A DNA stretch of 52,093 bases. Origin: an uncultured Gammaproteobacteria bacterium. GTDB lineage: Bacteria > Patescibacteriota > Patescibacteriia > UBA1558 > GWA2-36-10. The stretch covers positions 1 to 52,093 of the forward strand of contig CAZRZA010000004.1 of assembly GCA_964604515.1 (NCBI GenBank), given 5' to 3'. Below are positions 15,223 through 38,986 of this stretch, one piece after another (the first letter of the stretch is position 1; each line of letters starts with the position of its first letter). A program made the translations under genes and the position numbers. The notes below the pieces were generated by a model. The model made no database searches and was not told the origin of the DNA. It saw only the letters and a program-made list of their open reading frames with translations.

Positions 15223-15879
15223 ATGGCAGAAAGTAAAAAAAGCTCCTTATCTGATGATGTTGAAAAGGGTAATAGTGATGATTTAAATAAAGAAGATTTT
15301 AATTTAAATAACTTTTCTGATTCCGAAGATAGTATTATAGGTAGATATGCTAAAAAAATAGGTTTAGTAGTATTTGAAGTAGTTAAAGTAGTGTTAATAT
15401 CCTTAGCTATAATATTACCCGTTAGAATGTATTTGATACAACCATTTTATGTAGAAGGAGCTTCTATGGAACCTAATTTCTATAATAAAGAGTATTTAAT
15501 TATTAATGAAATTACTTATCGTTTTAATGAACCTCAAAGAGGTGAGGTTATTGTTTTTAAATATCCTAAGAATCCTCGTAATTACTATATAAAAAGAATA
15601 ATTGGTTTACCAGGAGAAACTGTAGAAATTAGAGATGGTCAGGTATATATTAATAATGAAATAGTAGCAGAAACATATATAGAATTATTCTCTAGTGATA
15701 ATAGAAGGGCTATTGTTTTGGGGTCTGATGAATACTTTGTATTAGGAGATAATAGAAATAATAGCTCTGATTCTCGTCTTTTTGGGCCATTAAAAGAAAA
15801 ATATATAATTGGCAAGGTTTGGTTTAGGGGATGGCCTTTAAATAGAATGTCTACATTTAATTTACCAGAATATAATTAA
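15223..15879 (+). CDS. lepB: Signal peptidase I
   Basis: GASMEP (Ser), YIKRIIGLPGE (Lys), GDNRNNSSDSR. Confidence 0.96.
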   Translation: MAESKKSSLSDDVEKGNSDDLNKEDFNLNNFSDSEDSIIGRYAKKIGLVVFEVVKVVLISLAIILPVRMYLIQPFYVEGASMEPNFYNKEYLIINEITYRFNEPQRGEVIVFKYPKNPRNYYIKRIIGLPGETVEIRDGQVYINNEIVAETYIELFSSDNRRAIVLGSDEYFVLGDNRNNSSDSRLFGPLKEKYIIGKVWFRGWPLNRMSTFNLPEYN

Positions 15880-17645: not shown

Positions 17646-18074
17646 ATGAATTTAAAAGAAAGATTAGATCAAGACTTAAAAGATTCTTTAAAGAGTAAAG
17701 ACAGTGTTAAAACAACAACTTTACGTCTTTTAAAGAGTAATATTAAGAATAAAGAAATAGATTTAAAGGAAGAGTTAAAAGAAGAAGAAATAATTAAAGT
17801 ATTAAGACAAGAATTAAAGAAAAGATCAGAGTCTATTAAGGCCTATCAAGAAGCAGGTCGAGATGAATTAAGAATTCAGGAAGAAAAAGAATATAAAATT
17901 ATTAATGAATATTTACCAGAATTAATGTCCGAAGATGATATTATTAAAATAGTTGAAGAAATAATAGCTACTGGTTTAGATAATTTTGGTCAAATAATGA
18001 AAGAAGTAATGATTAAGACTAAAGGCCAAGCTGACGGTGCTTTAGTACAAAAAATAGTAAAAGATAAAATTTAA
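17646..18074 (+). CDS. yqeY: GatB/YqeY domain protein
   Basis: LRLLKSNIKN, KKRSESI..Y..AGR, YLP, FGQIMK, GQADG. Confidence 0.92.
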   Translation: MNLKERLDQDLKDSLKSKDSVKTTTLRLLKSNIKNKEIDLKEELKEEEIIKVLRQELKKRSESIKAYQEAGRDELRIQEEKEYKIINEYLPELMSEDDIIKIVEEIIATGLDNFGQIMKEVMIKTKGQADGALVQKIVKDKI

Positions 18075-18082
18075 AGAAAAAA

Positions 18083-19645
18083 ATGAAATCCATGCTTATC
18101 AAAAAGAAAACAATTGTTATGTTTGTAGTTTTTTTAACAATTGTTTTTTTATTACCTCAAATAGGTTTTGCTCAAAATGAATTTGGTTTAGAAGATGTAG
18201 ACACTGCTTTGGGTGGCAATGATTTAACAGATATAATAGCTAATATTATTAATATCTTCTTAGGTCTTTTGGGTATTATAGCTACTATAATTATGCTTTA
18301 TGGTGGTTATTTATGGATGACTGCTCAGGGCGATGGTGATCAGGTTATTAAAGCTAAACAAATTATTATTAATGGTATTATTGGTTTAATAATAATAATG
18401 TTATCCTATGCTATTGTTTCTTTTGTTTTTAGTGCTTTAGTTGACGCTACCGATAATAATGGTGGATCTGGAAGTGGTAATGGTGGTGGCTCATATAGTG
18501 GTGGGGGCTTAGGAGCTGGTATTTTAGAAAGTCATTATCCTGTTCGTGATGCAACAGATATTGTTATGAATACAAATATATTTATTACCTTTAAAGAAGC
18601 TTTAAATATAGAAGATTTTATTATAACTGATTGTAATCATTTAGATTCTGAATATACAGAATGTATTGATAATGAATATATTATTTTAATGTCAGGAGAA
18701 GATAATCAATTAGAAGCAGGTGACTTAATGGTTAAGTATGATAGTGAACAAAAAGTTTTTGAATTTAATCCTTATGGTAATAGTAATACTTATTTAGATT
18801 CTGATGGAAACACAGAATATACTATGGTTTTAAATAATTTAGAAACAGTTAATGGTAACAGTGTTTTCTTTGCCGGAGCATATGCTTGGGACTTTGTAGT
18901 TTCTAATGATATTGATACTACGCCCCCTGAAATTTCTTCTATTATACCAATTAATGAATCTTCTGCTAATGCTAGAAATAGTATAGTACAAATAAACTTT
19001 AGCGAAGCTATTAATCCTAATACAGCAGCGGGCATTCAAGATGCTAATAATAATTTTACCAATATTATACTTAGTGATGGTAGTCCTATTAGTGGTCAAT
19101 ATTTAATATCTAATCAATATCAAACAGTAGAGTTTAATACTTTTGCTGCTTGCGGAGAGAATTCTTGCGGAGGAATAGTATATTGTTTACCAGGAGACAG
19201 TAATATAAACGGTATTGTTTCTGTAAATATTACAGATATGGCTGGTAATTCTTTAATAGAAGAGTATCTCTGGTCTTTTACAACAAGTAATGAAGTAGAT
19301 TTAGAAGAACCTAAGATAATCTCTAGAAGTCAGGGCGGTGATATTAGTTTAGAAAATCCATTAAAAGTAGTATTTGATAAAAGCTTATCTACCGCTTCTC
19401 TAAATTCAGATAACATTTCTTTATATATGACTGAATCAGGGGATTGGAATTATTGGTTAAATACAGATACTTGTGATGCTAGTATTAGTAATTGTAATTT
19501 AAATTGTACTGAGGGTGTAATTTGTAATAATACTATAAATATAAATCATGATAAATTTTTACCAGCAACTAATTATATTCCAGAATTAGATTCTGGAATT
19601 AAAGATTTAATGCAAAACTGTTGGTATCCTTGTGATTTAAATTAA
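18083..19645 (+). CDS. VirB2/TrbC-like pilin fused to Ig-like (Big_5) domains
   Basis: Signal peptide (GFA-Q), two-TM pilin YGGYLWMTAQG...KAK..I..GIIGLII, Gly linker, three Big_5-like repeats (NIFITF, IVQINFSE, LKVVFDK). Confidence 0.75.
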   Translation: MKSMLIKKKTIVMFVVFLTIVFLLPQIGFAQNEFGLEDVDTALGGNDLTDIIANIINIFLGLLGIIATIIMLYGGYLWMTAQGDGDQVIKAKQIIINGIIGLIIIMLSYAIVSFVFSALVDATDNNGGSGSGNGGGSYSGGGLGAGILESHYPVRDATDIVMNTNIFITFKEALNIEDFIITDCNHLDSEYTECIDNEYIILMSGEDNQLEAGDLMVKYDSEQKVFEFNPYGNSNTYLDSDGNTEYTMVLNNLETVNGNSVFFAGAYAWDFVVSNDIDTTPPEISSIIPINESSANARNSIVQINFSEAINPNTAAGIQDANNNFTNIILSDGSPISGQYLISNQYQTVEFNTFAACGENSCGGIVYCLPGDSNINGIVSVNITDMAGNSLIEEYLWSFTTSNEVDLEEPKIISRSQGGDISLENPLKVVFDKSLSTASLNSDNISLYMTESGDWNYWLNTDTCDASISNCNLNCTEGVICNNTININHDKFLPATNYIPELDSGIKDLMQNCWYPCDLN

Positions 19646-19652
19646 ATAAAAA

Positions 19653-22600
19653 ATGTTTAAATATTTTAATACAATCTTAATATCATTACTTTTACCCTGG
19701 CATAGTCTTTTTGCTCAAGAGGATAATTTTGGCTTAGAAGATGTTGATACCGCTTTAGGTAGTAATGAATTAACAGATATAATAGTTAATATTATTAATA
19801 TTTTCTTAGGATTATTAGGTATTCTTGCTGTTTCTTTAATATTATATGGTGGCTTCTTATGGATGACTTCTCAAGGTAATTCAGACCAAGTTACCAAGGC
19901 TAAACAATTAATAATCTCTGCTATTATAGGTTTGGTAATTATCCTTTCATCTTATGCTATAGCTTCTTATATTATTGGTTCTTTAAGTGAAGCAACAGGA
20001 ATAACAGAGTCTGATATTAATACTAGCACAACAGATTCTCCAGGCAGTGGAGACCCTGATGGTGGTTTGGGCTGTCCAGAGCCTCTGGATGAAGATGAAA
20101 TAAAGATTTGTTCTATTTCTCCTAGTAATGGAAGTAGTGGTTCCTATGTAACAATTAGAGGTTGGAATTTTGGAGAAATAGAGGGTAGTGTAACTTTTGA
20201 TAATAATGCTGGTAATACAACTTCAGCTGATTTAGTATCTTGTAATGGTAATGTTCTTTGGACAGATACAGAAATAAAAGTAGTTGTTCCTAATATAAAT
20301 GAAGCTACATATAGTGTTTATGTTAATAATATTGATTATACTTCTTTTGTTGTTTCAGAGGGTGCTAGTGGCCCTAATATTGCTTGTTTAACACCAGACC
20401 TTGGTCCAGGGGGAGAGTCAGTAGTGATAAGTGGGATTGGTTTTGGAGATCAAGGTGGTAATGTTACTATGAATGGTTGGGTGAATAATTTAGAAGAAGA
20501 AATAATATTAAATAGTACTTCTTGGTCTGAAAATGAAATAAGTATAAGTATTAATAATAATGCTTTAAGTAGTGATATTAGTATTAATACCGTAGAAGAG
20601 TTAAGTTCTTCTGGTGAATACTTTACTGTTTCTTGTCAAAGTGGAGAAGAGTGCTCTTCAGGATGTTGTGATAATAACTCTTGTTATTCTATAGATATTT
20701 GTATGGAAAATGATCCAGAGGGTATTTATATTAGTAATATTTATCCTCCTGATGGAGCGGGCGGAAGTTTAGTAACTATAACTGGTTCTGGTTTTGGAGA
20801 GACAGCGGGAATTGTTACATTTTATGATCAAGATTCAGGGGAGCCTGCTAATTTTCCTAGTACTATTAATAATAATTGTAGTGATTATTGGACAAATAAT
20901 ACTATTGTTGTTGAGGTTCCCCCTGATTTAAATAATGAATTATTAGACATTAGAGTTAATATTAATAGTCAAGAAAGTAATTCTGGTTCTTTTGAAAAAA
21001 ATGAAGTAATTAGACCAGGTATTTGTGGTTTAAGTGCTGATTCGGGAGTATTTGAAGACATTATTACTTTTTATGGTCTTAATTTTTCTGAAAATGATCA
21101 GGTTTTATTTGGGGGAGATGACTGGGCTGTTGATATTAATTATACCGATAGTCAAACAGTAACCGCTAGTATTCCTAATATGAGTAGTCAGAATCTAGAT
21201 GTATTTATTTCATCTAATAATATTAATAGTAATTCTTATCCTTTTACTATAGCTAGTACAGAGGGTGGTAAGCCTTTTATCACTAGTATTATTCCTGAAG
21301 ATTTTGCTAATACTTTAGAATATATAACAATTTATGGTGGTAATTTTGGTAATAGTGGTTTAGTTTATGTAATAGATTCTAATGGTACAGAACATCCTTT
21401 CGATATAGATTTAATACCTACACAATGTAATTCTAATTTTTGGCAAGATGATCAGATAATAGTAGCATTTTCTGACCAGGGATCAAAGATTAAAATTGTT
21501 AGAAATGATGATATAGCCAGTGATGAATATAATTATAATATACAAGGAGGATCAGCAGCACCTAGTATAGCTTGCATTATTCCTGATAATGGTCCGGTAA
21601 ATTCTTTAGTAAATATATATGGAAATTCATTTATAGGAGATAGTAGGATTATTTTTACCGATAATGTAGAAGCAGATTTAGGAGCATCTATTATAAATTC
21701 GCAACAAATATTAAATATTCCTGTACCAGAAGATTCAGAAACAGGAAATGTTTACTATACTAATGATATTAATAGTAATGCTCTCTTATTCGAAGTAGGG
21801 TCTTGTTCAGGGGACAGTGATTGTGATAATCAATTATGTTGTTCTGGTGATTTTGGTAATTATTGTGCAGATAGTTGTGAAATTGAGCCAAATCAATGTG
21901 AAGCCTCTTGGACTATAACTAGTGCCTCCGAAGAGTTTTCTTTGGTAGAGAGCTATGAATGTAGCAATAATACACAGTCTCCCGCTCCTTGGCCTCATGG
22001 TTTAGAAGAATATAGTTCAGAAGATGCATATTTAGATACTAATATTAGTATTAGATTTACAAGAGAAATAGAGGTAGATGATTTATTAAATATAGATAAT
22101 TTAAAATTATATAGTTGTGAAGATTATAATTCAAATTGTAATACTTTAATTAATGGTGAATATTTAAGTATAGATAATAATAAAGGAGTTTCTTTTAATC
22201 CCCAAAGTAATTTAAATCCAAGTACTTGGTATCAAGTAGTATTAGGTAGTTTTAATTCTAAGATAGGTAATGATACTTTAGAGTTAAGTAATTATCCTTG
22301 GCATTTTAAAACAGCCGGAGGATTATGTCAGATAGATAGCATATCTTTATCACCAGACTCAAGTCCAAATAGAGATATTTATTTAGGTAATGAAAAAACA
22401 TATACAGCTATACCACAATCTGCTAATTGTAATATTTGTGGCAGTGATTATAATTGGTCTTCAGTGTTACTTGGTAGCGATGATTATATTAGTACCATAG
22501 CTTCTAGTAATAATCCAAGCAATATTTTTTGGACCAAATTAAGAGGAGACATTATAAGTGATCCAGGATATACTTCTTTAGGGGTTAATGTAGAGGATTA

Positions 22601-25600
22601 TGCGGCCTCTACAGATATAATGGTTTTAGCTCCTAATTTAGAATTAATGGACTATGGACCACAATGTGATGATTCTTGTAATAATCCAGAAGTTTGGGCA
22701 GAATTTAATACAAATATAGCAGTATCCTCAGACTTACAATTATATAGTTGTAATAGTGTTGGTGATTGCTCAGGAGATAGCCTAGTTTCTTCTTGGGATA
22801 TTACAGATAATATTATTAAAATAACTAATTTAAATATACCCCTTGGTTTATACAAGGCTGTTTTGGGAGAAAATATAGAAAATGAATATGGCTATAGTTT
22901 AGGTTATGAACATAATTGGTATTTTACAGTTGGTAATCAGAATTGTGAGTTTTCTAGTATAGACATTAAACCAGATAATTATTTATCTGGAGAATTAAAT
23001 GAAATTATAGAGTATGAGGCTATGCCATATTCAGATACTGGTGTCTGTAATGGGCAGCCTTTAAATTGTGAAAATTGTTCTTGGTCTTGGTCTTTGGATA
23101 ATACTTTAGCTAATTTAAGTTCTGGTTCAGGTCCCGAGGCTACAATTACTACTTTGGCAGAAGGAGAGGTTAATATTTCAGCTAGTATTATTGACAATAA
23201 TGTAGTAGCAGGACAAGATTCATTGACCATTTCTTTGGGTACTGATGGTGATGATGAGGAGTACCCACCTAATAATCAGGCTCCAGTAATATTAAATGAT
23301 AATCCTGATGAAAGTAATACTTGTCTTAATGCTTCTATTTTTGTTACTTTTAGTGAATTGATGAATGAGCAATCTTTAAGAGATAATATGCATGTTTATA
23401 AATTAGCTGATTCAAATTATACAGAAATAAGCGGTTCCTTTATTTTTGCTAAAGATAATTATAATGGTGATGATGATAATGAAACTAGAGTAATATTTAA
23501 TCCTGATGAATATTTAGAAGCAGGAGGAGTTTATAAAGGTTTAATTGGTGAAAATGTAGTAAGTAGTGCGGGCCTATTATTATCATATATTAATCATAAT
23601 GAAGATTTGGAGCCTGGTCATTTATGGACCTTTTCAGGAGGAGAAGATTTGTGTCAAATTTCTTATATCGATATAGATCCTGAAGAATTAATCTTTACTA
23701 TACCTAATAGTTTAGAAAGTTTTACAGCTCAAGCTTATGATATTTCAGGGATAGCCCTAAATGTAGATACATATAACTGGTCTTTAATTGACACTAATCT
23801 ATTTTCTTTAGAAAATAATAATAGTCAAACAGCTAATTTATCTTCTTTAAATAATAATGGAGAAACATATTTAAATGTTCAGGTGTCTGATTCTGATCCA
23901 GCCATAGGTCAAGGCAGTTCCTTAGCTAGAGTAGAGGCTTTTCTATGTGAAAATCCTTGGCCAAGTAATAATGGAGAGTTTAATATTTTTTCTGATAATG
24001 ATTATGGTAATAATGACTTTAATTTCTCTATGTATTATTGTCAAAATGAAGGTCTAGAAGGCAGTGAATTATTACCATACTTACCAGATAGTAATTTTAT
24101 TATGCAAGAAGGTGGTGATGTTTTAAAAGAATATGTTTTTGTTATTAATCCAGCTCTAACTATGATTAATAATAATTTTGTTTATAATAGAAATGATAAT
24201 AGATCTTGGTGGCAAAAGATATTTAATTGGAGAATAATTAAAGCTCAGTCTTTTGCTGTTTATAATTTTATGATTACAGAAAATGATGGTAATCAAATAA
24301 GCTTACAATGGCAAGATGATACAGAGACATATGCTAATTCTTTTAATTTAGAACGGAGAACAGCTGGAGCATCTTGGACAGAGGTATCTGGAAATTTATC
24401 TGATTTAGCTCCTAATTTATTTGGTTATACTGATCAAGATATTTTAACTGGTATTTCTTATGAATACCGAGTTGGTTTAGGTGGCAATTATACTGATCCC
24501 ATAACAGTAACTGCGGGAGAAGATGATCCTTCTTTTGATATTATTGGTCTTAGAATTATTAGTAATATGGATCATTTATCAGCTAGAGACTGGTTTAGAC
24601 AGCAGGCTCCTAATGCTAATGCTACGGGACAATTAATAGAAGTTGCTGGTTATGAGGCTTTGAGGGTTGGTAATACTATTTATATTGCGGGTACTAATTT
24701 TAATGATACTAGTTTATATACAAATATCTATGCCCTTTCTTATAATATTGGGGCTCGTCCTTCTACTATAAATATTTATAATCAATTAATAGCTAATTTT
24801 GAATTAAATACTAATTTACCAACTATTGGTAATAGTAATACTTGTTTTGAAGAAAGTACTTTAGAGTGTTTTGATGATTATGATTGTGGGGTAGGTGATT
24901 ATTGTTTATCTACAGGATCTAAATTACATCGAGACACTAAACGTTTAAGTGATTTGATTAGTATTAAAGATAGTTTAGATAATTATGGTTCTCAGAATAA
25001 GTTTTGTAGTACAAATATGGCTCCTTGTTTTAATGATAGCAATTGTTTAGGGGATAGTAATTATTGTCAAGAATATTATCCTTCTTTAAACTCAGGTACA
25101 TTTGTTAATGGTATGACTACTACTAAATGGGGTTCTTGGAATGAAGAATTAGGCAATACCATCGGAGAGTCTTTGCCGGTTGATCCGGTTAATAAATTTA
25201 ATGGTTGTCCCTATGGTATAGATGACAGTACTTGTTGGGATGAGGGAGCACAAAATTTTATTTGTCCCCAAAACTCTCTTATTTATTTATATCAACAAAA
25301 TGATTTAACTTCATATAGTATTGGTGCTAACTTTGAGTCAGGAAGTAGCTTCACTAATGCCTTAAATGGTAATAATGGTATAGGAGTAAACAGTATCCTT
25401 AATATTATTGATTTAGATAATGTTTGTAATGCAGATACATATAATGCCGCTGGCCTACCAAGTACTCAGGTTTGTGGTGACGGTATTGTTAATGAATTAG
25501 AAGAGTGTGATGGTAATCCAGCTAATATTTGCCCAGAAAACTATTGGGAAGCATATACGGTTGGTTGTTATCCAGCAGGGTCTTTAAATAGTGTTGGTGA

Positions 25601-27653
25601 TTTAATTGAATGCACTTGGTATATAACTCCTGATAATTATGATTGTGGTGGTTATTGTGGAGATGCTGAAGTATATGATTTATATGAAGATTGTGAGGTA
25701 GGTGTCAATGAAGCTGACTTTAATTGTTTAGATGATAATAATAATTATTATTCTCCTCTTTGCCAATCTTGTTTTCCTGTTTGTGATGATGGTTCAGCTG
25801 CTGCCTCCTGTAATGATGGTTACTGGGATCCTAATAATGAGCAATGTGATGATTCTGGTAGTCCAACTGGTTTAAATAATTGGGACTGTACTAATGGAGA
25901 TAATATTTCTTGTAATAATTGTCAGGTTACTTGTAGTGGTTCTGGTATTTCATATTATGGACAATGTGGTAATACAGCTACTGAGGGACCAGAAGAATGT
26001 GATTATAGTGGTTATGGACCAATTTCAACAGCCTTAGCCAATAGTGTTAACACTCAATATGCTTGTTCTTATATTTGTGAAGATACGGGAGGATACTGTG
26101 GTGACAGCGAAGAACAAACTAGCTATGGCGAGGAGTGTGATCCAAGTAACTATACTGTTCCTACTCCTATAAATTCTAATCCTAATATACAATATGAATG
26201 CTCTAATATTTGTGCAGACGCTGGAGGATATTGTGATGATGGTAGTATTCAGACTAGTTATGGTGAAGAATGTGATACAGCTAGTTATGCTTATCCAAGT
26301 CCCAGTGAAGCTATTGACAGTAATACTCAGTATAACTGCACAGCTAATTGTAAGATAGATGGAGGATATTGTGGTGATGGAGTAGAACAAGCTAATTATA
26401 ATGAAGAATGTGATCCAAGTGGCTATACCGCACCTTCTCCTATAAATTCTAACTTAAGCACACAATATTCTTGCTCTAATACCTGCGCAGACACCGGAGG
26501 ATATTGTGGTAACAATAGTATTGAGAGCTCTGAAATATGTGAAAGTACTTTACATAGTCAACCAACTCCAGGACAATCTGGTATAGAGTGGGAGTATGAG
26601 TGTGATGCTGATAGTTGTCAGTATACGGGAGGATATTGTGGTGATAGTAATATTCAAGAAAACTATGGTGAGCAGTGTGATTTTAACAGTTATGTTTCAC
26701 CAACACCTCAAAACTCTTCAAACATTGATCAATATAGTTGCGATAATAATTGTCAGATATTTGGTGGTTATTGTGGTGACGGCAATATTGATAGTTATTA
26801 TGAAGACTGTGAAATTGGTATGAGTTGTAAAGATTATGATTCAGCATATTTAGCGGGTCAAGTTACTTGTGGTGATCCAGGAACAAGCAATGCTTGTCAA
26901 GTAACAGAAACAGCATCTTGTTGTAGTAGTGATAAGCTGCAGGCTAAATTTTTAGTAGATAATAGTTTTGAATTATGGGTTAATGGTAGTTCAATTGGCA
27001 CAGGCGATCATTGGGGTGGTTGTGATGGTGGGGGAGTTGGTGATGCCTGTGAATTTGAGATAGATGCAGCAGATGGTTTTTCTTTTGATAATTCAGAAAA
27101 TATTTTAGCATTTAAAGCTCATGACACTAGTGGCGGTTACGGTGTAATAGGTACATTTTCTTGTCAAGAACACACTTGTAAAAGTATTTGTTATAAAGGT
27201 AGTGATGCAGGAGAAATATGTAGTTCGGATGCAAATTGTTCAGAAGGAACTTGCGTGCATCCAGCAGCTGGAAAAGAAGGACAAGTATGTACAGAGAACA
27301 ATGATTGTAGAACCTATACCTTAGACAGTGGAGAGGAGGCTACTGGTAGTACGAATAGTAAACCAAGTCTTTGTTTACCAGATGACTTTGGTATTACAAC
27401 TAGACCAGACGGTCTTTGGAAATGTGTTCATGGATCTGATCCAGGAGACGGTTGGAAAGAGGCGGAGTATACAGAAAGCTCAGATTGGCAAGCACCAATA
27501 GAAGAATGGTTTAGTGGTGCTTGGGGATTATCAAGTCATCCTTCATATTGGAAGCATATGGTTCCGGGAGCAGTTTCTATCTGGGACGCTAGGGTTGAAT
27601 CAGGTTCAGATATTTATTGTCGTTATGTTCTGGTAACAGGCGCTGATCTATAA
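19653..27653 (+). CDS. Giant (2666 aa) pilin-anchored multidomain surface protein / putative adhesin
   Basis: Signal peptide, VirB2-like pilin, six IPT/TIG repeats, Big_5/Ig pairs, FnIII-like domain, GspG/pilin-like segment, CGDG..EECD repeats, C-terminal lectin-like domain. Confidence 0.8.
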   Translation: MFKYFNTILISLLLPWHSLFAQEDNFGLEDVDTALGSNELTDIIVNIINIFLGLLGILAVSLILYGGFLWMTSQGNSDQVTKAKQLIISAIIGLVIILSSYAIASYIIGSLSEATGITESDINTSTTDSPGSGDPDGGLGCPEPLDEDEIKICSISPSNGSSGSYVTIRGWNFGEIEGSVTFDNNAGNTTSADLVSCNGNVLWTDTEIKVVVPNINEATYSVYVNNIDYTSFVVSEGASGPNIACLTPDLGPGGESVVISGIGFGDQGGNVTMNGWVNNLEEEIILNSTSWSENEISISINNNALSSDISINTVEELSSSGEYFTVSCQSGEECSSGCCDNNSCYSIDICMENDPEGIYISNIYPPDGAGGSLVTITGSGFGETAGIVTFYDQDSGEPANFPSTINNNCSDYWTNNTIVVEVPPDLNNELLDIRVNINSQESNSGSFEKNEVIRPGICGLSADSGVFEDIITFYGLNFSENDQVLFGGDDWAVDINYTDSQTVTASIPNMSSQNLDVFISSNNINSNSYPFTIASTEGGKPFITSIIPEDFANTLEYITIYGGNFGNSGLVYVIDSNGTEHPFDIDLIPTQCNSNFWQDDQIIVAFSDQGSKIKIVRNDDIASDEYNYNIQGGSAAPSIACIIPDNGPVNSLVNIYGNSFIGDSRIIFTDNVEADLGASIINSQQILNIPVPEDSETGNVYYTNDINSNALLFEVGSCSGDSDCDNQLCCSGDFGNYCADSCEIEPNQCEASWTITSASEEFSLVESYECSNNTQSPAPWPHGLEEYSSEDAYLDTNISIRFTREIEVDDLLNIDNLKLYSCEDYNSNCNTLINGEYLSIDNNKGVSFNPQSNLNPSTWYQVVLGSFNSKIGNDTLELSNYPWHFKTAGGLCQIDSISLSPDSSPNRDIYLGNEKTYTAIPQSANCNICGSDYNWSSVLLGSDDYISTIASSNNPSNIFWTKLRGDIISDPGYTSLGVNVEDYAASTDIMVLAPNLELMDYGPQCDDSCNNPEVWAEFNTNIAVSSDLQLYSCNSVGDCSGDSLVSSWDITDNIIKITNLNIPLGLYKAVLGENIENEYGYSLGYEHNWYFTVGNQNCEFSSIDIKPDNYLSGELNEIIEYEAMPYSDTGVCNGQPLNCENCSWSWSLDNTLANLSSGSGPEATITTLAEGEVNISASIIDNNVVAGQDSLTISLGTDGDDEEYPPNNQAPVILNDNPDESNTCLNASIFVTFSELMNEQSLRDNMHVYKLADSNYTEISGSFIFAKDNYNGDDDNETRVIFNPDEYLEAGGVYKGLIGENVVSSAGLLLSYINHNEDLEPGHLWTFSGGEDLCQISYIDIDPEELIFTIPNSLESFTAQAYDISGIALNVDTYNWSLIDTNLFSLENNNSQTANLSSLNNNGETYLNVQVSDSDPAIGQGSSLARVEAFLCENPWPSNNGEFNIFSDNDYGNNDFNFSMYYCQNEGLEGSELLPYLPDSNFIMQEGGDVLKEYVFVINPALTMINNNFVYNRNDNRSWWQKIFNWRIIKAQSFAVYNFMITENDGNQISLQWQDDTETYANSFNLERRTAGASWTEVSGNLSDLAPNLFGYTDQDILTGISYEYRVGLGGNYTDPITVTAGEDDPSFDIIGLRIISNMDHLSARDWFRQQAPNANATGQLIEVAGYEALRVGNTIYIAGTNFNDTSLYTNIYALSYNIGARPSTINIYNQLIANFELNTNLPTIGNSNTCFEESTLECFDDYDCGVGDYCLSTGSKLHRDTKRLSDLISIKDSLDNYGSQNKFCSTNMAPCFNDSNCLGDSNYCQEYYPSLNSGTFVNGMTTTKWGSWNEELGNTIGESLPVDPVNKFNGCPYGIDDSTCWDEGAQNFICPQNSLIYLYQQNDLTSYSIGANFESGSSFTNALNGNNGIGVNSILNIIDLDNVCNADTYNAAGLPSTQVCGDGIVNELEECDGNPANICPENYWEAYTVGCYPAGSLNSVGDLIECTWYITPDNYDCGGYCGDAEVYDLYEDCEVGVNEADFNCLDDNNNYYSPLCQSCFPVCDDGSAAASCNDGYWDPNNEQCDDSGSPTGLNNWDCTNGDNISCNNCQVTCSGSGISYYGQCGNTATEGPEECDYSGYGPISTALANSVNTQYACSYICEDTGGYCGDSEEQTSYGEECDPSNYTVPTPINSNPNIQYECSNICADAGGYCDDGSIQTSYGEECDTASYAYPSPSEAIDSNTQYNCTANCKIDGGYCGDGVEQANYNEECDPSGYTAPSPINSNLSTQYSCSNTCADTGGYCGNNSIESSEICESTLHSQPTPGQSGIEWEYECDADSCQYTGGYCGDSNIQENYGEQCDFNSYVSPTPQNSSNIDQYSCDNNCQIFGGYCGDGNIDSYYEDCEIGMSCKDYDSAYLAGQVTCGDPGTSNACQVTETASCCSSDKLQAKFLVDNSFELWVNGSSIGTGDHWGGCDGGGVGDACEFEIDAADGFSFDNSENILAFKAHDTSGGYGVIGTFSCQEHTCKSICYKGSDAGEICSSDANCSEGTCVHPAAGKEGQVCTENNDCRTYTLDSGEEATGSTNSKPSLCLPDDFGITTRPDGLWKCVHGSDPGDGWKEAEYTESSDWQAPIEEWFSGAWGLSSHPSYWKHMVPGAVSIWDARVESGSDIYCRYVLVTGADL
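25965..26771 (+). repeat. Six tandem ~45-aa Cys-rich repeats (Myxococcus Cys-rich/DUF4215-like)
   Basis: Unit CGD..Q..YGEECD...Y..P.P..S...QY.C...C...GGY; DNA motif ggaggatattgtg recurs. Confidence 0.9.
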
Positions 27654-27720
27654 TAAAATATTAAAATAAATTATGTTTAATTAAATAAAAAAAGAAGAGA
27701 AAAAAGAAGTAATTAATGAT

Positions 27721-28443
27721 ATGTTTTCTGGTTTAGATACTGGGGATAAACCTAGCGCTATTCAGTCTGGTAAATTAGATATAAAAAACAATACTACTTT
27801 AGCAGAAACAGAAAGTATTATTCCCGAGAAAGAGAATAAGACGGGTATAATAAAGAAAGTAGTTATTTTCTTTATTATAGCTATAATATCTTTAGTAGTA
27901 TTTATTCTAATCTTTTCTTTCTTTAAAAAAGATAATAAAGAAGTGATTATTGAACAAAATAATACAATAGAAGAAGAGGCTATTAATAATATTAAAGAAG
28001 AGATAATTATTGAAGAGCCAATTATAGATTTAAGTAAAATAGATGATGATTCTGATGGATTAAGCAATGCAGAAGAAATAGAATTAGGAACAGATATTTA
28101 TAATCCAGATACAGATAATGATGGCTTATTTGATAGAGAAGAAGTTAAGATTTGGGGAACAAATCCTTTAGATCCAGATTCAGATAATGATGGTAACTTA
28201 GATGGTGTGGAGGTAGAAAATGGTTATAATCCATTAGGAGACGGCAAGTTACCAGGTTTAGAGAATTTTGATATAATAGAAGCTGATCCTAATTTATTAG
28301 ACAACGATGAGGATGGTTTGACTAATGCTCAAGAAATAGAATTAGGCACAGATTTAAATAATCCAGACACAGATGGTGATGGCTATTTGGATGGAGCAGA
28401 AGTAGAAAATGGTTATAATCCATTAGGAGAGGGTACTTTATAA
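27721..28443 (+). CDS. Membrane-anchored protein with bacterial TSP3-like Ca-binding repeats
   Basis: One TM; repeats DxDxDGLxxxEE.xGTD..NPDTDxDG; exact 29-bp duplication at 28213-28241 and 28402-28430. Confidence 0.85.
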   Translation: MFSGLDTGDKPSAIQSGKLDIKNNTTLAETESIIPEKENKTGIIKKVVIFFIIAIISLVVFILIFSFFKKDNKEVIIEQNNTIEEEAINNIKEEIIIEEPIIDLSKIDDDSDGLSNAEEIELGTDIYNPDTDNDGLFDREEVKIWGTNPLDPDSDNDGNLDGVEVENGYNPLGDGKLPGLENFDIIEADPNLLDNDEDGLTNAQEIELGTDLNNPDTDGDGYLDGAEVENGYNPLGEGTL

Positions 28444-28457
28444 TTAATTAAATAAAT

Positions 28458-29498
28458 ATGTTTGAAAAACCAAAAGAAAAAGAAATAGATAATAGTCAAC
28501 AAAAAGTAGAAAATGTTGCTGATAATATAGAAAATAATATAGACCCTAATGCTGAAAGTATAGACTCTAAGAATATAGAAATTCATGTAATGCCAGAAAA
28601 GTTTTTACCAAAAAATGATAAGAAAAAGATGAGTACTAAGAAAAAGATGATTATTTCAGTTATTACTTTTATTATGTTTTTGATTTTAGTTTTAGGAACC
28701 ATGCTCTATATAGCTAGTACTAGTATTAAAAAAGAAGAAGTAAAGAAAGAGGTAGAAGAAATTAAAGAAGAAGTTGTTAAAGAAATAATTATAGAAGAAC
28801 CGGAACCAGAACCAGAGCCGGAACCAGAGCCAGAGATGATAGAAGAACCAGAAGAAAATGAATTCGAAGAAAATATAAATACTGAAGAAGAATTAATAGA
28901 AGAAAGCACAGAAGTAATAATAGAAATTAATTTAGATGAGGATCAGGATAACTTAACCTTAGCTGAAGAGAGTTTATATAATACCAATCAAAATAATTCA
29001 GATACAGATAATGATGGCTATAATGATGGTTCAGAGATAATAAGTTTATATAATCCTCTAGCTAGTAGTCAAAAATTAGTAGACTCTGGTTTAGTTTCTA
29101 TTTATACAAATATATTATATAAATATAATATATTAAAACCAATGCCTTGGGTTGTACAATCATTAATAGAGGGTGATAATAGTGATATAGTATTTTTAAA
29201 TAATTCAGAAACAGGAGAATTCTTCTCTCTTAAGGTAATACCTAATATAGATGGTTTAACTTTAAATAATTTTAGAGAAATTATGGAGGCAAATTTAGAG
29301 CCGGGAGTAAGTTTAGAAAATTATAATTTAGGAAACAATCCTGCTTTAATAACCAATGATGCTTTAGCTGTCTTTATGGTTACTAATGATTATGTTTATT
29401 CTCTGGAGTATGTTTTAGGAGAATTAGATATTATTAATTTTGCTACTACTTTTGAAATGATGTTAAATAGTTTTGAATTATTAGAAGATAATGAATAA
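28458..29498 (+). CDS. Membrane-anchored protein with Glu-Pro linker, TSP3-like repeats and C-terminal globular domain
   Basis: IHVMPEKF, TM, (EP)n, DEDQDNLT..EE..Y.T....DTDNDGYNDG. Confidence 0.8.
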   Translation: MFEKPKEKEIDNSQQKVENVADNIENNIDPNAESIDSKNIEIHVMPEKFLPKNDKKKMSTKKKMIISVITFIMFLILVLGTMLYIASTSIKKEEVKKEVEEIKEEVVKEIIIEEPEPEPEPEPEPEMIEEPEENEFEENINTEEELIEESTEVIIEINLDEDQDNLTLAEESLYNTNQNNSDTDNDGYNDGSEIISLYNPLASSQKLVDSGLVSIYTNILYKYNILKPMPWVVQSLIEGDNSDIVFLNNSETGEFFSLKVIPNIDGLTLNNFREIMEANLEPGVSLENYNLGNNPALITNDALAVFMVTNDYVYSLEYVLGELDIINFATTFEMMLNSFELLEDNE

Positions 29499-29919
29499 TT
29501 TAATAGATTTAAATATAAGAGGATATAGGGTGGACTTTACTTGGTTAAAAGATTTAGAAAAAATTGTAAAGAAAAAGAGTATTGATTTAAATCAAAAAGA
29601 GTTAAATAAATATATTTCTTTAGCTTTAATCAATAAAAAAGAAATTAAGGAATTAAATAAGGTTTATAGGAAAAAAAATAAAGTAACAGATGTTCTTTCC
29701 TTTAATTTGCATAGTAAAGAAATATTAGGAGAAATAGTAATTTGTTTAGAGGAAGCTAAAAAACAAGCCTTAGAAAAGAAAAAGACTATAAAATCAGAAT
29801 TAAAGTTATTAACAGTACATGGTTTATTACATCTTTTGGGATATGATCATGAAAAGAGTAAGAAAGAAGAAAAGAGACAAGAAGAAAAGGAGAAAGAAAT
29901 ATTAAATTTATTAAAATAA
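29491..29919 (+). CDS. ybeY: rRNA maturation RNase YbeY
   Basis: LN..YR.K...TDVLSF, GEIVIC, HGLLHLLGYDH. Confidence 0.96.
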   Translation: MNNLIDLNIRGYRVDFTWLKDLEKIVKKKSIDLNQKELNKYISLALINKKEIKELNKVYRKKNKVTDVLSFNLHSKEILGEIVICLEEAKKQALEKKKTIKSELKLLTVHGLLHLLGYDHEKSKKEEKRQEEKEKEILNLLK

Positions 29920-30260
29920 TGAAATGTAGAATTTACCAAAGCTTTAAAAATGCTTATCAGGGTATTAAAATAGTATTAAAGTCAGAAAAGAATTTTCGTA
30001 TTCATCTTTTCATAACATTTATTGTAATCTTATTCGCTTTCTATAGAGATTTAGAAAAAATAATGTGGGTTGGTTTATTATTAATAATAGCTATAGTATT
30101 AGCTTTAGAGATATTTAATTCTGCAATTGAAAGGCTAGTGGACATGCTAGCTCCTAAAACACATTCTTTTGCTAAAGAAGTTAAAGATCTTTTAGCGGCT
30201 ATGGTTTTAATAGTAGTTATTTTCGCAATTATTATAGGCTTTATATTATTCTTTGCCTAA
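29919..30260 (+). CDS. dgkA: Diacylglycerol/undecaprenol kinase family protein
   Basis: SF..A..G, EKNFRIH, EIFNSAIE..VD, KD..AA; follows ybeY. Confidence 0.92.
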   Translation: MKCRIYQSFKNAYQGIKIVLKSEKNFRIHLFITFIVILFAFYRDLEKIMWVGLLLIIAIVLALEIFNSAIERLVDMLAPKTHSFAKEVKDLLAAMVLIVVIFAIIIGFILFFA

Positions 30261-36008: not shown

Positions 36009-36869
36009 ATGAATCAAAAAGGATTTTCTTTAACAGAACTGTTAGTAATAGTAGCTATTATTATGATTTTATCTACTATTTTTATAGTTTCTGGTACAGC
36101 TATTAGAGAGAAATCTCGTTTGAGTAAAGCGAAATCTTTTGATAAAGAGCTTTCTCTGAAGTTAGGTTATAATTTAATAGGAGAATGGACTTTTGATGAT
36201 AGTAATAACTTAGGTAAAGATACTTCTTCTTATTTTAATAATGGTATGGTGAATAATGTTTTTTCTGCGTTAGAAACTGATTGTGTAGCAGGGAAATGCT
36301 TGTCTTTTACTGAGAGTAATGATCCTTATATTAAATTAGAGTATGATGATAGTAATTTATTATTCCAAGAAACAAGTGAATTAACTATTTCGGCTTGGGT
36401 TAAGCCAGTTGATGTGGGAAGCACCAAAGCTTATATCTCGGGGTTATTCAATATTAGTGATGATTATTCTATTTTCAATGGTTGGTTATTAGGTGGAAAT
36501 CATAGTAATAATAATATTTATTTTCAGATAGCAAAAGGAAATGCTGCTAATATTTCATGGGCTGTTTACAATGATTTTTTTATTGAATTTAATTCAAAAT
36601 GGGTACATATTGCAGGTGTTTATAAGGGGGGTGAATATGTTAAATTATTTATTAATGGTAAAGAGGTTAATTCTAATCTAAATCCTGTTACTTCAATACT
36701 TATGCCAGAAAATACAAATTTTCAAATAGGAGGAGTTGAAGTCTTCGATGATGATATTTGGAATGGCTATATCGATGATATTCGTATCTATAGAGATGCT
36801 TTGAGTATAGCTCAGGTAAATAATTTGTATGAAAAAGATTTAAATAAGTATTTAGCATTGACTGAATAG
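36009..36869 (+). CDS. Type IV pilin-like protein with LamG/ConA domain
   Basis: Class III signal KG-FSLTELLVIVAII; GEWTFD, TISAWVKP, WVHIAGVY, LFING, GYIDDIRIY.DALS. Confidence 0.9.
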   Translation: MNQKGFSLTELLVIVAIIMILSTIFIVSGTAIREKSRLSKAKSFDKELSLKLGYNLIGEWTFDDSNNLGKDTSSYFNNGMVNNVFSALETDCVAGKCLSFTESNDPYIKLEYDDSNLLFQETSELTISAWVKPVDVGSTKAYISGLFNISDDYSIFNGWLLGGNHSNNNIYFQIAKGNAANISWAVYNDFFIEFNSKWVHIAGVYKGGEYVKLFINGKEVNSNLNPVTSILMPENTNFQIGGVEVFDDDIWNGYIDDIRIYRDALSIAQVNNLYEKDLNKYLALTE

Positions 36870-36906
36870 AGTATTTAAGTTTAAATAGAGGAAGTAAGTG
36901 ATTTAA

Positions 36907-38199
36907 ATGAAGAAAAGTGAATTATTTATTTTATTTAGTTTGGTATTTTTAATTACTACTTTTATTATAGTAATTAAGAAACCTATTATATTTGGTAATT
37001 CATTAGAATTATCTTTTTTTGAATATGATAAGTATTATACTTTTACTGGTCAAATAATTAAAAAAGAAAAAAAGATTAAGGGTAATAGATATTTAGTGCT
37101 TAGTGAATTTGGTAAAATATTAATATCTACTCCTCTTTATCCAGAGTATAATTTAAATGATAATTTAGAAATATCTTGTAAGTTAAAAAAAGCTGAGCCT
37201 ATTATTGATGATTATGGTTATCAATTTTTTTATGATAAGTATTTAGCTAAAGATAATATATTTATATTATGTTCTTATCCTCAAATTAAGTTTTTAAATA
37301 ATAATAATTATAATATTTTAAGTATTAAAGAATACTTTTCTAGTAATTTAAATAATTATTTAAGAGAACCAGCTTCTTCTTTAGCTAAAGCTATGCTTTT
37401 AGCAGAAAGAAGAGAATTAAATTTAGAATTAAGAACTGCTTTTAGTAAAACTGGTTTAAGTCATATTATAGCTATTTCAGGATTACACATAGCTATTATA
37501 GTATATTTATTACAAATATTATTAATATCTTTAAATAAAAGAATATCTTTTTTTCTTATTAGTTTTATTCTCTTCTTTTATTTATTTTTATTAAACTTTC
37601 CTTCTTCAGCCTTAAGAGCTTCTTTAATGATTATTATTGTTCTTTTAACTCCTTTTCTTAACAGAAATACTAAACCTCTCTATAGTCTAATATTAGTAGC
37701 CGATCTTTTAGTATTAATTAATCCTTATATTATAGTTTATGACATTGGTTTTCAATTATCTTTTTTAGCTGTTTTAGGATTACTATTCTATATTAAATAT
37801 TTTCAGAAAGTATTAATATTTATACCTAATAAGTATAAGTTAAGAGAGGTTCTTTCTGTTACCTTAGCTGCGCAAGTATTTACTTGGCCTTTAATAGTAT
37901 ATTATTTTCATATCTTTTCTTTTATTGCTCCTTTAGCTAATTTTTTAATATTACCATTTTTACCTTTTATATTAGGCTTAGCTATCTTTTTGTCTCTTTT
38001 TGGTTTTATACCATTTTTAGCTGAATTAATAGCTCGGCCTTTATTTGTATTATTAAAGATAATAGTTATTATAGTACAGTATTTAAGCAATATACCTTTA
38101 GCATATTTAGAAATACATAATTTTGATTTAAAATATTTAAGTTTATCTTTTTTATTCTTAATATTATTAACATTTATAATAAAGCCCTATGAAACTTAA
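36907..38199 (+). CDS. comEC: ComEC/Rec2 membrane (Competence) domain protein
   Basis: TGLSHIIAISGLH, SALRA, NPY...DIGFQLSFLA. Confidence 0.93.
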   Translation: MKKSELFILFSLVFLITTFIIVIKKPIIFGNSLELSFFEYDKYYTFTGQIIKKEKKIKGNRYLVLSEFGKILISTPLYPEYNLNDNLEISCKLKKAEPIIDDYGYQFFYDKYLAKDNIFILCSYPQIKFLNNNNYNILSIKEYFSSNLNNYLREPASSLAKAMLLAERRELNLELRTAFSKTGLSHIIAISGLHIAIIVYLLQILLISLNKRISFFLISFILFFYLFLLNFPSSALRASLMIIIVLLTPFLNRNTKPLYSLILVADLLVLINPYIIVYDIGFQLSFLAVLGLLFYIKYFQKVLIFIPNKYKLREVLSVTLAAQVFTWPLIVYYFHIFSFIAPLANFLILPFLPFILGLAIFLSLFGFIPFLAELIARPLFVLLKIIVIIVQYLSNIPLAYLEIHNFDLKYLSLSFLFLILLTFIIKPYET

Positions 38200-38986
38200 A
38201 TTAATTATAATTATGTTTTTGATATTTAATTATTATCCTACAGAATATTTAAAAGTATCATATTTAGATATTGGTCAAGGAGATAGTATCTTATTATCTG
38301 TTAAAGATTATAATATTTTAATTGATGGGGGACCTGATAATTCTTTATTATATCAATTAGGGGAGAGCTTACTTTGGTTTGAAAAGAGAATAGACTATTT
38401 AATTATCTCTCATTATCATGCTGATCATTATACAGGATTTATTGAATTATTGAATAAATATGAAATAGGAGAAATATTAGTTACTAATCATCAGCCTGAT
38501 AATAAATTATATAATATTTGGCTAGAGAAATTAAAAGAATATAATTACAAAGTAAGAGTTGTTGAAGAAGGGGAGAGATTTATAATAGCTGATAATATAT
38601 ATTTTGATATTATTTTAGCTCATAGTAATTATGAAGATTATAATGATAATTCTTTAGTATTAAAGTTTAATTATTATGATTTGAAATTATTATTTACCGG
38701 AGATTTAACTTCTCTTTTAGAAAAAACTATATTAGAAAAAGATTTAGAGTCGCAAGTATTAAAAGTAGGTCATCATGGTAGTAAATGGTCTTCTTCTTTA
38801 GAATTTTTAAAAGTAGTAAAACCAGAAATATGCTTAATTCAGTCTGGTCTCTATAATAAGTTTCAGCATCCTCATTTAGAGACTATTAATAGACTAAAAG
38901 AAATTAATTGTACTATATACAATACTCAAAATACGGGTACTGTTAATTTATTTAGTAATGGTTATGATTATTGGTTTGACTTTTAA
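38189..38986 (+). CDS. ComEC-type metallo-beta-lactamase-fold nuclease (separate gene)
   Basis: LDIGQGDS, LIDGG, SHYHADH, NDNSLV, LFTGD, LKVGHHGS, HPH. Confidence 0.92.
   Translation: MKLKLIIIMFLIFNYYPTEYLKVSYLDIGQGDSILLSVKDYNILIDGGPDNSLLYQLGESLLWFEKRIDYLIISHYHADHYTGFIELLNKYEIGEILVTNHQPDNKLYNIWLEKLKEYNYKVRVVEEGERFIIADNIYFDIILAHSNYEDYNDNSLVLKFNYYDLKLLFTGDLTSLLEKTILEKDLESQVLKVGHHGSKWSSSLEFLKVVKPEICLIQSGLYNKFQHPHLETINRLKEINCTIYNTQNTGTVNLFSNGYDYWFDF

Follow-up and report, generated by a model that had tools for sequence, protein, structure and literature searches.

The window analysed here, 52,093 nucleotides of GenBank contig CAZRZA010000004.1, is contig C4 of the 647-kb genome (94.5% complete) of an ultra-small marine member of the Patescibacteria. 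The list of its open reading frames (ORFs) contains four tightly packed genes on the + strand between yqeY and ybeY, here named g1 to g4 (Table 1). The original prediction, made from the sequence alone, had described four co-oriented and closely spaced genes at this site, and the ORFs are exactly as claimed. Spacing is 8 nucleotides (nt) between yqeY and g1, 7 nt between g1 and g2, 67 nt between g2 and g3 and 14 nt between g3 and g4, and g4 and ybeY overlap by 8 nt. A promoter/terminator scan found no terminator-like sites within the g1–g4 gaps, and its promoter-like sites were at background (98 versus 83.8 expected). The first two genes encode proteins in which a pilin module of the kind found in type IV secretion systems (T4SSs) is fused to a large ectodomain, and the last two encode single-pass proteins with TSP3 repeats.

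The g1 protein contains a signal peptide (residues 1–31), a mature VirB2-like hairpin (residues 32–124), a Gly-rich linker (residues 124–140) and an ectodomain of three Ig-like, Big_5-type domains (residues 148–273, 284–401, and 412–515). The T4SS_pilin family PF18895 matches residues 47–115 above its cut-off of 26.6 bits, with 41.2 bits in a genome-level scan, and TrbC (PF04956) scored 26.2 bits, below its cut-off of 27.9. In an AlphaFold2 (AF2) model of g1 computed with 85 homologues (predicted local distance difference test, pLDDT, 84.8), a signal helix (residues 8–27) precedes two helices (residues 48–79 and 85–124) joined by a short loop, followed by the disordered Gly-rich linker and three β domains. 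A signal peptide and two hydrophobic helices with a short loop, the hallmark of VirB2/TrbC/TraA-type pilins, are therefore present in g1 in the model and in g2 as a sequence pattern. Both N-termini had been proposed to be a signal peptide followed by a two-helix pilin; both match PF18895 above its cut-off, and the g1 model folds as the expected hairpin. Across the 85 g1 homologues, loop residues W78, M79, T80, G83, A91, and K92 show either no variation or a conservation of at least 90%. At least 188 proteins are related to g1 at E ≤ 1e-3, and 117 of 120 among those listed carry both PF18895 and PF13205 (Big_5). Foldseek searches with the whole model returned generic tandem-Ig matches of low TM-score, the best being the S-layer protein SbsC (0.17).

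In g2, a signal peptide (residues 1–22) and a hairpin (residues 23–115) are followed by a stalk of TIG and Big_5 Ig-like domains (TIG 69.1 bits in three stretches, Big_5 49 bits). PF18895 reached 43.6 bits in the genome-level scan and TrbC 16.9 bits, again below 27.9. The g1 and g2 pilin modules are 64% identical in a local alignment and 69% identical across the hairpin core; NF045849, a pilin-like model from Mycoplasma integrative and conjugative elements, matches both more weakly (30.3 and 28.5 bits, cut-off 40). At 520 and 2666 residues, these PF18895-bearing proteins are not small stand-alone subunits of the ∼70–130-residue type, and the ectodomains of ∼400 and ∼2550 residues predicted to follow the pilin start are borne out. 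Because a cleaved signal peptide is followed by two membrane helices, the C-terminal domains of both proteins are predicted to lie outside the cell, as first supposed, and their Cys-rich Ig/TIG content fits an extracellular location.

The long ectodomain of g2 is unevenly conserved. The stalk and the central module are kept in 16–19 of 19 orthologues and the C-terminal 270 residues in only 2–3 of 19. In three of the 19, the match to the central module ends ∼40–45 residues from the C-terminus. An AF2 model of this module is well formed (pLDDT 79.8, predicted TM-score 0.78). The PDB yielded no match to it, either by fold at E ≤ 0.001 or by sequence below E 0.07, and no Pfam family was detected below E 0.005 in any of 20 members scanned; the idea that it resembles a type IV pilin head is unsupported by these fold and sequence searches. 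DUF4215 domains had also been expected in g2, and here the original prediction failed: PF13948 gave no match at E ≤ 1 across eight pieces of the protein, yet Cys-rich repeats of ∼45 residues do occur there and PF13948 is found in 20 of 83 relatives. These 83 giant relatives, 72 of which carry PF18895, otherwise contain VWA (13), LamG (11), and C-type lectin (1) modules according to precomputed Pfam assignments. The only names these relatives bear are 'hypothetical', 'Ig-like', 'VWA' or 'LamG' protein, and they come from metagenome-assembled genomes labelled Komeili-, Falkow-, Buchanan-, Magasanik-, Uhr-, and Kerfeldbacteria. A diversity-generating retroelement was considered as the source of the variable tip and rejected, since the 94.5%-complete genome contains no reverse transcriptase and no template-like repeat was found. 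ESM Atlas look-ups with the g2 tip and the g4 C-terminal domain were uninformative, all scores being below 0.9.

Both g3 and g4 lack a signal peptide and have a single hydrophobic stretch followed by an acidic or Glu-Pro spacer. In g3, a transmembrane segment (residues 47–68) and an acidic linker lead into four TSP3 calcium-binding-type repeats (nt 28042–28425), which exceed the cut-off of TSP3_bac (PF18884). The order in g4 is an N-terminal motif, a strongly basic stretch, a transmembrane segment (residues ∼64–90), a Glu/Pro-rich spacer and one weak TSP3 repeat. TSP3-like repeats had been proposed for both proteins; this holds for g3, and in g4 the match is weak, its 16.7 bits falling short of the cut-off (25). 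The missing signal peptide, the single hydrophobic stretch, the basic segment of g4 and the acidic or Glu-Pro spacers together suggest an N-in/C-out orientation for both. The g4 motif IHVMPEKF (residues 42–49, nt 28581–28604; consensus [IV]x[VTSAIH][MI]Pxx[FY]) precedes the basic stretch and the transmembrane segment and is thus predicted to be cytoplasmic. Among the g4-like ORFs of related loci it recurs in 26 of 30, whereas the genome itself has it in just 1 of its 475 ORFs of at least 150 residues, which points to a cytoplasmic partner.

Table 1. Features of the g1–g4 cassette and its immediate flanks (window coordinates).
Feature	Position	Strand	Remarks
yqeY	17646..18074	+	Upstream flank, 8 nt from g1; YqeY 138.3 bits
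g1, modular pilin, 520 aa	18083..19645	+	PF18895 37.3 bits, Big_5 61.1 bits; AF2 model
g1 mature pilin module	18176..18454	+	Co-varying unit; start of DNA similarity to g2
g2, giant modular pilin, 2666 aa, 113 Cys	19653..27653	+	PF18895, TIG, Big_5
g2 mature pilin module	19719..19997	+	PF18895 36.4 bits, aa 37–107, cut-off 26.6
g2 conserved central module, aa ∼1625–1932	24525..25448	+	In all 19 order-level orthologues
g2 Cys-rich repeats, ∼45 aa, five or more copies, period 135–138 nt	26048..26819	+	DNA repeat families D1, D3, D7, D8
g2 variable C-terminal tip, aa ∼2400–2666	26850..27650	+	Common to only 2–3 of 19 orthologues
g3, single-pass, 240 aa	27721..28443	+	TSP3_bac 78.9 bits, four stretches
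g4, single-pass, 346 aa	28458..29498	+	Weak TSP3 repeat; conserved C-terminal domain, aa ∼200–346
ybeY	29491..29919	+	Overlaps g4; YbeY 120.5 bits
ybeY and dgkA	29491..30260	+	Downstream flank, then ftsA and ftsZ

The gene pair and its surroundings are conserved in related genomes. Among 32 loci fetched, g1 and g2 are adjacent in 31. At the level of the order, YqeY-g1-g2 was present in 19 of 20 loci, the twentieth (L034) being another pilin protein. In the order-level loci that could be assessed for each gene, YqeY lies upstream in 19/19, and g3, g4 and YbeY are present in 17/17, 15/15, and 13/14, respectively. Twelve further, more distant loci of the class are alike in having the g1-g2 pair, between one and three TSP3 anchors, a gene resembling g4, and YbeY (12/12 each), with YqeY upstream of g1 in 6 of 11 assessable cases. 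The four genes thus occur together across order and class, and the g1–g4 cassette is, judged from gene content and order, a class-wide core operon. The g1 ectodomain was detected in 88 of 151 sampled genomes of the class, representing 84 of 137 genera, and in a sample of 201 genomes from the phylum, every listed match that reaches this ectodomain belonged to this same class. All 41 related genomes have PF18895 matches. By hand count, 48 of the best 150 (of 394) lie in open frames of at least 400 residues, and such long frames are typically paired, one of ∼500–1000 and one of 2200–4600 residues, ∼1.6 kb apart.

Some loci depart from this layout. An additional gene between g2 and g3 encodes a single-pass Cys-rich protein of 241–264 residues in three loci (L023:13412-14206, L025:5707-6465, and L033:11977-12702) and a secreted protein of 843–1138 residues in two (L016:15588-18119 and L028:820-4236). 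In other classes of the phylum, pilin-module matches were found inside open frames of 1100–1700 residues (G346:C6:19216, G243:C17:36180, G379:C1:806926, G217:C30:7936, and G328:C21:85099); pilin fusions are therefore not limited to this class.

A class-wide core with fixed synteny directly upstream of ybeY-dgkA-ftsA-ftsZ could, rather than serving host attachment, build a general envelope or S-layer-like coat or a surface scaffold at the division site, in which the pilin module would be a membrane foot and g4 would tie the assembly to a cytoplasmic partner. The g4 cytoplasmic motif, kept in 26 of 30 orthologues, would suit such a role, as would the calcium-binding repeats, which are common in surface layers, and the closest fold returned for g1 belongs to an S-layer protein, at a low TM-score. 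That match, however, reflects tandem Ig domains only, and the cassette's place beside division genes may be a legacy of its history. Moreover, a lineage-variable g2 tip with swapped VWA, LamG or lectin modules is a pattern typical of ligand-binding adhesins, not of lattice proteins. We regard a coat or scaffold as quite improbable.

The pilin modules of g1 and g2 resemble not only each other but also free short pilins of the same genomes. A hidden Markov model of the g1/g2 N-termini found free pilins with E-values down to 6e-47. In a quick tree search over 87 columns, which left many forks open, a single clade (Shimodaira–Hasegawa-like approximate likelihood ratio test, 95) held every g1 and g2 module together with 21 of the 84 free pilins, and g1 and g2 did not separate into two orthologue clades. 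Instead, the two modules are more alike within a genome than between genomes, with identities of 67.3% (n = 20) versus 49.2% (n = 380) across 20 genomes. Across 31 genomes the values were 57.0% versus 41.2%, and none of 2000 shuffles reached the observed value. The same holds for one group of free pilins, here called class A, the representative of each genome being picked by its likeness to the fusions of other genomes and not to its own. In 13 of 14 genomes it is closer to the g1/g2 of its own genome (56.6% versus 46.0%), the free-pilin regions being taken from the best PF18895 matches of genomes that, as kin, are not independent.

The co-variation has a sharp boundary. The signal peptide shows no excess match between the free pilin and its own g1/g2 (22.8% observed versus 23.5% expected), and the excess peaks in the mature N-terminal segment (50.8% versus 31.8%). 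The column profile of g1 against g2 follows the same pattern, with co-variation beginning exactly at the predicted cleavage site. In the DNA, a direct repeat (D2) of 274 nt and 74% identity between g1 (18177–18450) and g2 (19723–19996) starts at the first mature codon. A complex prediction for three class-A free pilins with the g1 pilin module scored 0.00; made without controls, it counts neither way.

This likeness of g1, g2 and free-pilin modules might instead be a by-product of gene conversion with no bearing on co-assembly, an explanation that concerns the co-variation only and overlaps with the coat alternative above and the membrane-anchor alternative below. The 274-nt repeat does link the two genes, and identical codons at identical residues are in excess (0.58 observed versus 0.49 expected), reaching 0.72–0.76 versus 0.48–0.55 in L015, L022, and L026. 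In these three genomes gene conversion may contribute to the co-variation. Overall, an excess of this size leaves synonymous sites mostly randomised, and recent conversion therefore explains little. No codon excess was found in L020, L023, L028, L029, and L032. In L020 (genome G004), where codon sharing is 0.43 versus 0.45 expected, within-genome identity is nevertheless 66.7% versus 52.9% to the best other g1, and the free pilin, g1 and g2 group together with a support of 99. In addition, the similar tract begins at the cleavage site in both protein and DNA, a functional rather than random boundary, and the free pilin lies on another contig. Gene conversion as the general cause is improbable.

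T4SS genes are located elsewhere in the genome. It had been stated that the window contains no VirB4, and indeed the only VirB4-like match of the genome is on contig C1, within a T4SS core (C1:10817-18317) that consists of PrgI (40.5 bits), a VirB4-like P-loop_TraG protein (94.8 bits) and a 304-residue pilin-like protein. In the stretch C1:13963-16664, the VirB4-like gene (673 residues) is preceded by a separate 226-residue ORF with a faint TraC-type match, possibly a split-off N-terminal part. No match to the TrbL/VirB6 Pfam families was found in the genome at E ≤ 0.01, and an 835-residue ORF adjoining the C1 giant-protein/T4SS region matched no Pfam family. PF18895 has nine matches in the genome. 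Free short pilins are found at C9:64-1960 and C17:11791-12571, among them the class-A pilin of this genome (C9:64-447, 127 residues); since both sites are at contig ends, assembly has probably interrupted the array, whose true extent may be greater. Only two ORFs of the genome exceed 2500 residues, namely g2 and a 2580-residue Cys-rich protein on C1. The latter belongs to a parallel locus (C1:25147-33626), where a g3-like TSP3 single-pass protein of 243 residues (C1:32895-33626) precedes the giant. This locus lies ∼7 kb from the VirB4/PrgI genes, which we count in favour of the proposal made below. Across the class, VirB4 was detected in 144 of 151 genomes.

We propose that the g1 and g2 proteins are VirB2-like pilins of modular build. 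Together with one free pilin they would assemble and present a giant adhesin, the TSP3 anchors serving as partners; we put the chances for and against this proposal as even. The original prediction had already read the cassette as adhesin-bearing minor pilins, a reading that is now supported in part: domain content, the hairpin, synteny and co-variation with one free pilin speak for it, and its DUF4215 component was not recovered. Of the three outcomes named in advance as counter-evidence (no hairpin fold, large domains in the cytoplasm, no co-occurrence in relatives), none was encountered. Co-assembly through the pilin module is proposed because g1, g2 and the class-A free pilin have lineage-specific residues in common. 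The Sec signal peptide of g1 and g2 would be cleaved after A-Q, leaving the mature two-helix module in the membrane with both ends outside, as the predicted topology suggests. From there, a flexible Gly-rich tether would connect the C-terminus of the module to a rod outside the cell, made up of the three Ig-like domains in g1 and, in g2, of ∼2550 residues of TIG/Ig stalk, conserved central module, Cys-rich repeats and lineage-variable tip. Two arrangements can be envisaged. g1 and g2 might be minor, probably tip-located subunits of a pilus built by the VirB4/PrgI machinery on C1, or they might form, together with the free pilin, a membrane oligomer at the base of the pilus. In either case they would supply the adhesin otherwise lacking in T4SS loci of Patescibacteria, with g3 and g4 as presumed N-in/C-out, calcium-dependent, wall-spanning partners. 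Such a system would be expected to polymerise, to depend on a T4SS, to bind calcium and to contact a host.

The hairpin could, on the other hand, be a membrane anchor only, with g1 and g2 acting as tethered adhesins that never polymerise and need no T4SS. Several observations weigh against co-assembly, and some of them favour such an anchor directly. Neither the window nor any of 31 related loci has a T4SS gene in or beside the cassette, which is instead fixed among housekeeping and division genes. Among the 88 class genomes positive for g1, five lacked a VirB4 match by protein query and gave none above the cut-off with PF19044; free-pilin arrays persist in these five, and for this reason they fail to separate the models. 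A 2550-residue cargo would be incompatible with a frequent subunit of a thin pilus, and a long rod on a Gly-rich tether could function just as well when seated in the membrane. The link to VirB2 depends on one Pfam family, TrbC remaining below its cut-off; the class-A pilin profile matched no solved pilin at E ≤ 1, and the class-A pilin gave no tblastn match to plasmids. The open forks of the tree, the kinship of the genomes sampled for free pilins and the possible gene conversion in three of them also count on this side. A plain anchor, however, requires neither the conserved loop residues W78, M79, T80, G83, A91, and K92 nor co-variation of the mature N-terminal segment, but not of the signal peptide, with g2 and the free pilin, and the nesting of the g1/g2 hairpins inside a free-pilin clade is likewise not expected of it. 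We consider an anchor-only function unlikely, though it deserves to be taken seriously.

The proposed pilin-adhesins can be compared with several known systems. The one Patescibacterium tested genetically requires its T4SS and its VirB2-like pilins to grow epibiotically (Wang et al., 2023; PMC10633639). Small VirB2-like pilins and their arrays have been described in Patescibacteria (PMC12102498; PMC12857230; PMC10633639), and a review states that Gram-positive systems otherwise have neither VirB2 nor VirB5 (PMC12857230). The pilins described in Patescibacteria belong to the same PF18895 family and have the same signal peptide and two-helix hairpin as g1 and g2. Moreover, the same genomes hold free-pilin arrays and a VirB4/PrgI core, and the g1/g2 modules nest in one free-pilin clade. 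The published pilins, as far as the excerpts describe them, are small, diversified and arrayed near virB4, whereas g1 and g2 are conserved, fused to ectodomains of 400 and 2550 residues and located away from T4SS genes. No description of pilin fusions was found in the texts, supplements aside, of the Patescibacteria and Candidate Phyla Radiation pilin literature searched.

A T4SS survey of Patescibacteria reports having detected neither PrgB nor comparable adhesins (Quinonero-Coronel et al., 2025; PMC12102498). The contact role proposed for g1 and g2 is the same as that of VirB5 tip adhesins in Gram-negative T4SSs and PrgB adhesins in Gram-positive ones. VirB5 is located at the pilus tip. Neither VirB5 nor PrgB has any sequence or domain relation to g1 and g2, in which the adhesin is covalently part of the pilin. 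VirB2/TrbC pilins undergo head-to-tail cyclisation, which is impossible for g1 and g2 because of their C-terminal extension.

The closest design precedent is found in the modular type IV pilins. PilB and PilC of Streptococcus sanguinis are described as small pilin carriers with a linker and adhesive modules (vWA, lectin/LamG), the same design as in g1 and g2, and modular type IV pilins such as PilB have been modelled at the pilus tip (PMC8179133). Type IV pilins differ in their unrelated fold, their assembly machine and their N-methyl signal; no N_methyl motif (PF07963, IPR012902) was matched in g1 or g2, whose cargo reaches ∼2550 residues. The Pam pilus, presented in a preprint, is a different, donor-strand system (PMC13278184). 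g3 matches the repeat region of the Myxococcus CglD model with 50.9 bits, far below the cut-off of 400. Only repeats are common to the two, g3 and g4 being small single-pass proteins.

A more specific scenario can be offered as a tentative possibility, with the balance leaning against it. The T4SS-type pili of Patescibacteria may have built-in adhesins, with g1 and g2 being loaded first through their pilin module and capping a pilus of the co-evolving free pilin. They would replace a VirB5/PrgB-type adhesin and place a lineage-specific tip on the host, while g3 and g4 would form a calcium-stiffened, wall-spanning collar coupled through the g4 motif to an intracellular partner. If true, these proteins would found a new class of T4SS pilins, modular in build, and the apparatus would be what an entire bacterial class uses to recognise its hosts. 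The main proposal on its own already offers, in a conserved pilin-adhesin pair that co-evolves with one free pilin, a concrete candidate for the missing contact part of the T4SS, and it would extend the modular pilin principle from type IV pili to conjugation-type pilins. The variable g2 tip would then be a likely determinant of host range in this large uncultivated class.

The wider surroundings of the cassette consist of housekeeping genes. Upstream are genes for PheST, GyrB, NusG, L1, PepA, Pth, Der, an LCP protein, signal peptidase I and HisRS, and downstream are NrdR, RF1, and ComEC. DgkA and FtsA following YbeY were identified by family scan and ftsZ was assigned by likeness. The signal peptidase I gene (Peptidase_S26; 15223–15879) lies upstream of hisS-yqeY-g1 and, by likeness, has the same position in nine order-level and six class-level loci. 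Further downstream, a modular type IV pilin of 286 residues (36009–36869) combines an N_methyl motif with a lectin-like Laminin_G_3 domain. Its gene lies directly upstream of ComEC and a metallo-β-lactamase-fold protein, in a region spanning 36009–38986.

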